From Escherichia coli (GTDB taxonomy: Bacteria; Pseudomonadota; Gammaproteobacteria; Enterobacterales; Enterobacteriaceae), in NCBI RefSeq assembly GCF_003334765.1, contig NZ_QOWT01000031.1: a stretch of 47,728 bases of DNA, one strand, 5' to 3'. A model generated the notes under the pieces. It did no database searches. It was not told the DNA's origin and saw only the letters and a program-made list of their open reading frames with translations. Below are positions 44,261 to 45,412 of the stretch, one piece after another (the first letter of the stretch is position 1; each line of letters opens with the position of its first letter). The translations under genes and the position numbers were made by a program.

Positions 44261-44668
44261 GTGTCGAATCCTTATCCAAAACAAGAGGTAACTCTCATGC
44301 TTCATACTGCCAATCCCGTCATCAAACACAAAGCCGGTTTGCTCAATCTGGCTGAAGAACTCAGCAACGTATCAAAAGCCTGTAAAATCATGGGCGTTTC
44401 GCGTGATACGTTTTATCGTTACCGCGAACTGGTCGCTGAAGGCGGTGTGGATGCGCAGATTAATCGTAGTCGCCGCGCTCCTAACCTTAAGAACCGTACC
44501 GATGAGGCAACTGAACAGGCTGTTGTTGATTACGCCGTCGCTTTCCCGACACATGGTCAGCACCGGGCCAGCAACGAGCTGCGTAAACAGGGGGTTTTTA
44601 TCTCCGACAGTGGTGTCCGTTCTGTCTGGTTACTCCATAACCTTGAGAATCTCAAAAGACGATACTGA
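44261..44668 (+). pseudogene. ylbG: Transposase N-terminal HTH fragment (ylbG-like remnant)
   Basis: Short ORF with transposase-like HTH (KACKIMGVSRDTFYRYRE) and no catalytic domain. Confidence 0.5.
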
Positions 44669-45412
44669 ACAAATTTTATCAGGTGACGTTCCGTAAAAAG
44701 TTGTATGGAGTTCTCGATGCAGTCGGCGCGACTATCAGTACCCCCGCTGAACCCTGGACTATCGGGCCGCCGTACTGGGGCATGTCACCCTGGCGTGCCG
44801 CTGGTTTTCCGCTAATGGTTTATTTCCTCTTTCTTTCCCGGCAAGAATTTATTTTAATCCGGAAGGATTATTTATTTTCAGATAGGGACTCACATTAAAC
44901 ACGTAACATTTTAATTAATGCATGGCTGAATATGTATTACACAATGTCAGATATCGTAAAAGACCAGTGCAATTCTATGTAAACTCTCTGACTGTTCATT
45001 TTATTTGTTGTTTCAGGGTCGGAACTCACCCTCAATAAACAACTGAATACGAGTAGATATTCATCGTCTGAGCTATATGGCTTTACACAATAGCCGACAT
45101 GTCTTTTCTCAGTCAGGAATTTTACTTTTCCTCACTACGAAGTTGACGACTTCGATATGGGATAGACTCTTAATTCAAGCAATTACTCTGCACAAGCATC
45201 AGGCAATCCAGCTCCAATATTTGTTATAAAATAATGCGTAACATTAATTTCACCAACAAAAAAAAGGTTTACACCATCCCCTTGCCCTGGTATCTTACCA
45301 TATTTACACCACACTTTTTTTGTATCTGGATCATTCTTTGATACGATTTTCGCCACTTGTTCCCTGGCCCTCACTGTCAATGTTTTCTTAAACCTACCCC
45401 CATCATCATTTG

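Follow-up and report, generated by a model that had tools for sequence, protein, structure and literature searches.

A decayed insertion sequence and a 5' rhs stub at the mnmH edge of the RhsD island of Escherichia coli

The interval between ybbD and mnmH in Escherichia coli closes the RhsD island and is annotated in K-12 as the pseudogenes ylbG and ylbI. Here this interval is described in a window of 47,728 nucleotides, the whole stretch of DNA that was analysed (E. coli assembly GCF_003334765.1, contig NZ_QOWT01000031.1), in which it spans positions 44195-45182. An initial annotation, made from the sequence alone, had recognized a transposase fragment followed by AT-rich DNA with degenerate direct repeats, and had proposed that this stretch might serve as the promoter of orphan toxin/immunity modules. 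The interval is very probably the decayed distal end of the RhsD island between ybbP and mnmH, lacking any dedicated function and keeping in its layout the record of a deletion history. In this history the scar would document a former second, distinct rhs gene of the RhsD island that was removed by a deletion associated with an insertion sequence (IS). The biological weight of the locus is small, since it is a fixed, neutral-looking scar in a well-studied genome that has already been annotated as pseudogenes and shows no sign of function.

Layout of the mnmH edge of the RhsD island

Over its last 8 kb, the window carries gcl, allR, allA, allS and mnmH on one side and, on the minus strand, the 3' part of rhsD followed by ybbC, ylbH and ybbD on the other, which identifies the locus as the mnmH–rhsD region of the E. 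coli K-12 type. The ybbD-mnmH interval of K-12, with ylbG and ylbI, is the same locus with essentially the same sequence: three differences separate the window from K-12 strain RP437 over 7.5 kb, and in megablast K-12, like many other strains of E. coli, matches 44200-45200 at 100% identity. The pieces that make up the interval are listed below; their identities and limits, their junctions and their orientation were all observed directly.

44195-44721, plus strand: IS481-family remnant that keeps its left end, has lost an internal part of the transposase gene and is cut short on the right, with no right inverted repeat; delimited by identity to a plasmid copy (L003)
44195-44220, plus strand: left terminal inverted repeat of the IS, TGTATTAGTCGCGACTTGATCTGACA, which aligns with both ends of intact plasmid copies
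44232-44302, plus strand: leader hairpin pairing the Shine-Dalgarno sequence and ATG of the transposase gene, a 16-nt inverted repeat that is 88% complementary
44297-44668, plus strand: ylbG pseudogene open reading frame (ORF), consisting of transposase codons 1-122, one junction codon (Tyr) and a stop codon, with helix-turn-helix (HTH) domains only
44656-44721, plus strand: internal transposase piece (about amino acids 259-279), out of frame with ylbG, located by tblastn with the intact transposase; frame-3 translation KTILNKFYQVTFRKKLYGVLDA
44722-44816, minus strand: beginning of a second rhs core gene (5' stub, ylbI in K-12), with 31 codons from the N-terminal domain that include the PAAR sequence, identified by translation and alignment
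44817-45182, no strand: AT-rich non-coding spacer of 366 bp with a GC content of 0.355, lying 3' of ybbD and 5' of the rhs stub
44865-45047, no strand: 183-nt piece of the spacer with one diverged paralogue, which is 86% identical, with a 53-nt block free of differences, and lies at the rhsE/pptA locus in about 94 other E. coli genomes

The outer limit of the island is set by strains that lack it. Their homology to the 3' flank of mnmH stops at window positions 44183-44188 (44188 in Nissle 1917), and the left repeat of the IS starts 6 bp past this divergence point; the RhsD island thus ends with the IS remnant. The initial annotation was thus right to place a transposase fragment at the edge of the Rhs island and to regard it as a scar of past insertion or deletion, the scar being visible as a left repeat next to the island boundary, an internal deletion, a 3' truncation and a fusion to a 95-nt piece of an rhs gene. 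Its inventory was incomplete in that the rhs stub and the internal IS piece had been overlooked. The roughly 500 bp of AT-rich non-coding DNA that it described shrink accordingly to the 366 bp of 44817-45182, because 44722-44816 is the rhs stub, with 64% GC against 35.5% in the spacer, and 44669-44721 is still IS sequence.

In the RefSeq annotation of K-12, ylbG is entered as an incomplete helix-turn-helix protein and the stub as an incomplete hypothetical protein; ylbI is the name used in the literature for the gene downstream of ybbD. What these annotations leave unsaid is that the hypothetical stub consists of rhs codons 1-31 and that ylbG belongs to a 527-bp IS481-family remnant; unlike the present analysis, they are also silent on the intact left inverted repeat and on the second, out-of-frame piece of the transposase.

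The IS481-family remnant and the rhs stub

The IS remnant, at 527 bp, exceeds what the initial annotation had described. Its left part (window 44194-44661) is 95% identical to L003 2495-2962, the left 468 bp of a plasmid-borne IS, and window 44653-44721 is 81% identical to L003 3358-3426, which belongs to a later part of the same transposase gene. In the plasmids L003 and L012 the intact element measures about 1.14 kb and carries matching inverted repeats at its ends, the mate of the left repeat closing the element about 1.14 kb away. A right inverted repeat was not found in the window, where truncation at 44721 corresponds to L003 position 3426 of about 3633; with the right end deleted, there are no paired flanks that could show a target-site duplication. 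The IS481-family element of plasmid pJNE25-003_1, which encodes a transposase of 327 amino acids, shares with the window copy the left repeat, the leader hairpin and codons 1-122 (95% nucleotide and 89% amino acid identity), and differs from it in having the rve core, the right end and the right inverted repeat. No name could be assigned to the IS, the plasmid records giving only 'IS481 family transposase'.

The coding part of the remnant starts at the homologous ATG at 44297; the start at 44261 in the initial annotation is an in-frame GTG further upstream. The ylbG ORF is 89% identical to residues 1-122 of the intact transposase of pJNE25-003_1 and matches the NCBIfam profile transpos_IS481 at profile positions 2-112 of 284 (E 2e-25). 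Its score of 89.9 bits lies below the whole-protein cut-off of 224 because only one third of the protein remains, the intact plasmid transposase reaching 285.8 bits on the same profile. Pfam finds only HTH_29 (E 2.9e-20), HTH_28, HTH_23 and HTH_32 in the ylbG ORF, with no match to the rve catalytic domain, whereas in the intact transposase these HTH families are followed by rve and rve_3 at residues 143-307. The fragment is thus, as first described, a transposase N-terminus without a catalytic domain. Between it and the internal piece about 400 bp are gone, corresponding to codons ~123-258 and most of the rve core, and the right-hand truncation took the last ~50 codons of the transposase together with the right inverted repeat. 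Because the rve core is deleted, this copy is a remnant and not a functional member of the IS481 family, and it cannot transpose.

The leader of the transposase gene has kept a recognizable control structure. The arms of its hairpin lie at 44232-44247 and 44287-44302, with a folding free energy of -25.7 kcal/mol and a z-score of -3.2. Such leader hairpins are a usual device of insertion sequences to block translation from read-through transcripts. The IS left end and the hairpin also give a match to the Rfam family psRNA2 on the minus strand (44123-44294) that stays below threshold (31.1 bits against a gathering score of 65, E ~1e-5). This family may partly describe IS481-type ends and not a free-standing small RNA.

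On the opposite strand, the IS piece adjoins the beginning of an rhs gene, with the fusion point at 44721/44722. Read on the minus strand from 44816 to 44722, the stub encodes ISGKPAARQGDMPQYGGPIVQGSAGVLIVAPT, which contains the conserved Rhs N-terminus (MSGKPAARQGD...) and has 27 of its 31 residues identical to RhsD, although its start codon is ATT instead of ATG. It matches positions 1-31 of the 1261 positions of the NCBIfam profile RHS_core (E 2.7e-11), and its gap-free alignment with rhsD takes in the first 95 nt of that gene, exactly from the start codon on, at 79% nucleotide identity. Rhs homology ends at 44722 after 95 nt, where the IS begins, and neither the core of about 1,200 amino acids with its YD repeats nor a C-terminal toxin tip follows; the stub is a pseudogene stub. 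Of the 93 nucleotides compared with rhsD, 20 differ, and the 17 differing codons comprise 13 synonymous and 4 non-synonymous ones. The amino acid changes M1I, T13P, R27L and G29V are unique to the stub, three other rhs genes agreeing at those positions, and one rhs gene (L017) is closer to it than rhsD, with 15 differences. Since the differences from rhsD are mostly synonymous, the stub appears to derive from a once-functional, distinct rhs paralogue that was later truncated, and not from a copy of the 5' end of rhsD.

Across the fusion runs a chimeric ORF of 71 amino acids (44683-44898, plus strand), which starts in the internal IS piece, continues through the antisense of the rhs stub and ends in the spacer. 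No protein family matches this ORF, which most likely arose by chance when the pieces were fused.

History and distribution of the scar

These pieces can be assembled into a history of the locus. A second rhs gene, oriented like rhsD and preceded by the AT-rich DNA, would once have followed downstream of rhsD and its modules for toxin and immunity, and an IS481-family element would have occupied the mnmH edge of the island. A deletion with one end within the IS and the other at codon 32 of that rhs gene would then have removed the right part of the IS, nearly the whole rhs gene of ~4 kb and the intervening DNA. An internal, out-of-frame deletion would have taken the catalytic core of the transposase, its order relative to the larger deletion not being fixed, and the start codon of the stub would have changed from ATG to ATT afterwards. 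Left over are the 527-bp IS remnant (ylbG), the 95-nt rhs stub on the opposite strand (ylbI) and the 366-bp spacer, the last of which would be at once GC-poor trailing DNA of the ylbH/ybbD module and the former upstream region of the lost rhs gene. We infer this order of events, the spacer as native upstream region of the lost gene, and an ancestral state with an intact second rhs gene, which was not itself observed.

The composition and gene order of the locus agree with what is known of rhs loci. GC-poor downstream regions with fragmentary rhs pieces are a canonical feature of such loci (Jackson et al. 2009, PMC2935791), and ylbG and ylbI likewise sit inside a GC-poor tail. The spacer has a GC content of 35.5%, compared with 32.9% in ybbD, 30.6% in ybbC and 0.49 in the whole window, and the minus-strand order rhsD-ybbC-ylbH-ybbD-spacer fits the GC-poor downstream region of an rhs locus. 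The C-terminal displacement model of the same authors concerns 3' fragments made of core plus tip, whereas the fragment in the window is a 5' (N-terminal) stub. An IS-associated deletion that removed a second, tandem rhs gene explains it better than C-terminal displacement does, and IS-associated loss of an rhs gene would represent a distinct mode of change at these loci.

Counted directly, the scar is present in 2,724-2,753 of 5,426 complete E. coli genomes, where the figure of 2,724 refers to genomes with at least 80% of 44200-45200, and it is at least 99% identical in about 2,700 of them. In six strains whose mnmH and allS are 1-3.5% diverged from the window, each of the three island segments (IS remnant, stub and spacer) keeps an identity of 98.6-100% (compared over 43087-45182). 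A near-invariant scar next to core genes with such divergence suggests that the RhsD island spread or was exchanged among lineages after the scar had formed, or that it is younger than these lineages. The spacer is conserved no better than the adjacent IS remnant and stub and thus shows no constraint beyond that of its pseudogene neighbours. It tolerates an IS1 insertion, an ISCro1 insertion at ~44984 and an IS3-associated deletion, and the ybbD-ylbG intergenic locus is among the three landing pads at which reporter libraries have been integrated into the MG1655 genome (bioRxiv 10.1101/2020.01.04.894907).

Several observations weigh against this history. No genome with an intact second rhs gene behind the spacer was found among the 5,426 E. 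coli genomes, the species-representative genomes or two metagenome pattern scans. A distant blastn search of the E. coli genomes yielded nothing beyond this scar, the 5' ends of other rhs genes at 75-82% identity and the paralogue of the 183-nt piece; when 100,044 species-representative genomes were scanned for exact 25-mers, the sole match was an E. coli contig that had been mis-binned in an Alistipes metagenome-assembled genome (MAG); and the metagenome scans, one for ATG in place of ATT behind the leader and one for the stub signature followed by a downstream rhs motif, gave zero matches. The species-representative and metagenome scans need exact matches and are therefore insensitive, which makes this absence weak negative evidence. 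Next, the spacer has only about 16-18 nt beside the start codon in common with the leaders of other rhs genes. The 183-nt core of the spacer recurs behind an unrelated immunity-type ORF at the rhsE/pptA locus, so part of the spacer may belong to the upstream module and not to the lost rhs gene. Finally, published in vitro binding of RNA polymerase and a chromatin immunoprecipitation (ChIP-chip) target of FNR show that the spacer DNA is not biochemically inert.

The contig just mentioned, CASFSC010000074.1 (L011, 3,995 bp), is assigned to a MAG of 'uncultured Alistipes sp.' but matches window 43548-47543 at 99.55% identity, being E. coli DNA that was mis-binned into a Bacteroidota genome.

Other readings of the spacer and the stub, and the neighbouring genes

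The published binding signals bear most directly on a different reading of the spacer, in which it keeps the live promoter of the lost rhs gene. A non-coding RNA started there would read through the stub, lie antisense to both the IS remnant and the mnmH 3' end, and have a regulatory role, perhaps one that responds to FNR. Genomic SELEX (systematic evolution of ligands by exponential enrichment) with RpoD holoenzyme assigned to the ybbD>ylbI spacer a 'constitutive promoter' (Shimada et al. 2014, PMC3946193), which was placed in the window by regular expression as follows.

45119-45149, minus strand: SELEX promoter TCGTCA-19-TAAAAT, read from 45149 to 45119 and pointing towards the rhs stub ylbI

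In addition, a ChIP-chip study of FNR lists a target 'ylbI' at 528,318 without a predicted site (PMC1802558). This position in MG1655 (U00096.2) corresponds to about window 45219, at the 3' end of ybbD beside the spacer, the conversion being an estimate that uses an offset of 776. Against these signals, the SELEX promoter is a poor match to the consensus and was not called by our consensus scan, because its spacer is 19 nt long. The scan found no promoter-like site on either strand of 44817-45182 and three in the region as a whole, where 4.6 +/- 2.2 are expected; neither promoter-like nor terminator-like sites are in excess in the spacer region. The FNR consensus does not occur within 44700-45400 at up to two mismatches. 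Other signs of function are equally sparse: Rfam gives no match within 44817-45182 at E <= 1, the small ORFs of the spacer have no NCBIfam match, and its fold z-scores of -2.1 and -1.75 are unremarkable. A live promoter is also hard to reconcile with a spacer that is conserved no better than pseudogenes, tolerates IS insertions and serves as a landing pad. The RpoD and FNR signals may reflect either a promoter that the lost gene has left behind or binding to AT-rich DNA without specificity. They leave a small probability for a residual transcript, and a regulatory transcript of the kind described here is unlikely.

The 183-nt piece invites another explanation, since it is shared by the toxin/immunity cassettes of two separate rhs loci, which are otherwise unrelated to each other. 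It could be a conserved 'trailer' that accompanies Rhs cassettes of this kind and acts either as a downstream homology arm for cassette exchange or as a promoter or RNA firing into the following DNA; the in vitro binding of RpoD and the ChIP signal of FNR would agree with the latter role. We regard such a trailer as distinctly unlikely. The piece is not a dispersed repeat, because there is one copy per genome, and the three 1-nt indels that separate its two types argue against a conserved ORF. At the rhsE/pptA locus the paralogous copy is cut by an ISAs1 element.

This second locus resembles the scar in several respects in strain ampC_0069. There, an rhs gene following vgrG is cut 17 nt past its ATG by ISEc1 (L004 7335-7369), and a second ISAs1-family copy abuts the 183-nt piece (L004 4995-5190); both junctions have the IS end GGGAAAGATCATCA in common. 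The likeness to the window lies in an rhs gene cut a few codons after its start by an IS, in a similar start-proximal leader and in a 183-nt AT-rich piece nearby. The difference lies in the IS family (ISAs1), in a stub of 17 nt as opposed to 95 nt, and in the upstream vgrG, which has no counterpart at the window locus. Separately, the spacer was considered as a downstream anchor for cassette exchange at the RhsD locus and rejected: the spacer is bordered by ybbD in 2,741 genomes and was not seen beside any other cassette.

The initial annotation had further described two loosely similar units of about 100 bp in the AT-rich stretch, which could reflect an ancient tandem duplication or a pair of protein-binding sites. 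The short motifs on which this was built do exist, TTACACAAT occurring at 44937 and again at 45083. When 44817-45182 is aligned with itself in an unbiased way, the best pair off the diagonal is indeed that of the initial annotation (ending at 44954/45100). Looser scoring of the pre-selected units gives z-scores of 2-4.6. However, the score of the best self-alignment is 15 compared with 11.8 +/- 2.0 in dinucleotide shuffles, 19 of 150 shuffles being as high or higher, and stringent local alignment gives z-scores of only 1.0-1.5. A repeat search finds only the 18-nt pair, at 78% identity, and Tandem Repeats Finder reports nothing in the stretch. The homology of the rhsE-locus paralogue ends at ~45047, inside the second unit, so that the pair is not kept as a pair. 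Self-similarity in the spacer is thus not significant, and a true duplication or a pair of sites is very unlikely.

That the stub is a partial duplicate of the 5' end of rhsD itself, copied in a rearrangement, would agree with an alignment that begins at the first base of the start codon. This origin is nevertheless highly improbable: identity is only 79%, the predominance of synonymous changes is the pattern of long divergence under selection, the rhs gene of L017 is nearer, and the DNA upstream of the stub is unrelated to the K-12 rhsD upstream region, the spacer having no homology to that region outside the coding stub. The weakest of the alternatives, and one that can practically be dismissed, is the proposal that the stretch is the promoter of the orphan modules ylbH and ybbD, for although promoter-like sequences are frequent in AT-rich DNA and RpoD holoenzyme binds the spacer in vitro, the spacer cannot be their promoter because both are minus-strand genes that end at 45183 with the stretch 3' of them, the plus strand carries no reading frame of the orphans, the SELEX promoter faces ylbI and thus away from them, and the consensus scan finds no site in the spacer. 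The orientation originally assumed for the stretch is corrected by this result.

The reading of the interval as a decayed island end is embedded in the following neighbouring features, where entries from RefSeq refer to the annotation of RP437 converted to window coordinates.

44297-44662, plus strand: ylbG in RefSeq, 'helix-turn-helix domain-containing protein, missing C-terminus'
44721-44816, minus strand: 96-nt 'hypothetical protein, missing C-terminus' in RefSeq
From 45183, minus strand: ybbD in RefSeq, in two pieces, with the Rhs C-terminal fragment (ylbH), ybbC and rhsD beyond
45674 to 45183, minus strand: ybbD, orphan module and immunity-type gene of the ylbH module, which bounds the spacer; interrupted in the window, intact (163 amino acids) in other strains
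46364 to 45654, minus strand: ylbH, orphan module

In the window and in K-12, ybbD consists of two ORFs of 65 and 86 amino acids, whereas elsewhere it is an intact 'YbbD family protein' of 163 amino acids (for example L002 4984-5475); the K-12 copy is therefore a frameshifted pseudogene.

The gap between ybbP and mnmH is a variable cargo site, as judged from the comparison of L006, L007 and L008. For example, Nissle 1917 has only sequence resembling repetitive extragenic palindromes (REP-like) in this gap, strain E41 has a dinQ-type type I toxin gene, and ST131 has an Hcp-family effector of the type VI secretion system together with three DUF2931 genes, while in K-12-like strains the gap is occupied by the RhsD island. 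The module next to the spacer also varies in its arrangement. In O157:H7 (TR01) and some other strains including STEC1585 (L013, L015; 4452-5999), a full-length RHS core protein ends in a ylbH-type tip and is followed by ybbD, whereas in K-12 the ylbH-type toxin tip sits as a displaced orphan behind rhsD-CT/ybbC. With the tip fused in O157:H7 and orphaned in K-12, this is a clear case of C-terminal displacement at the locus.

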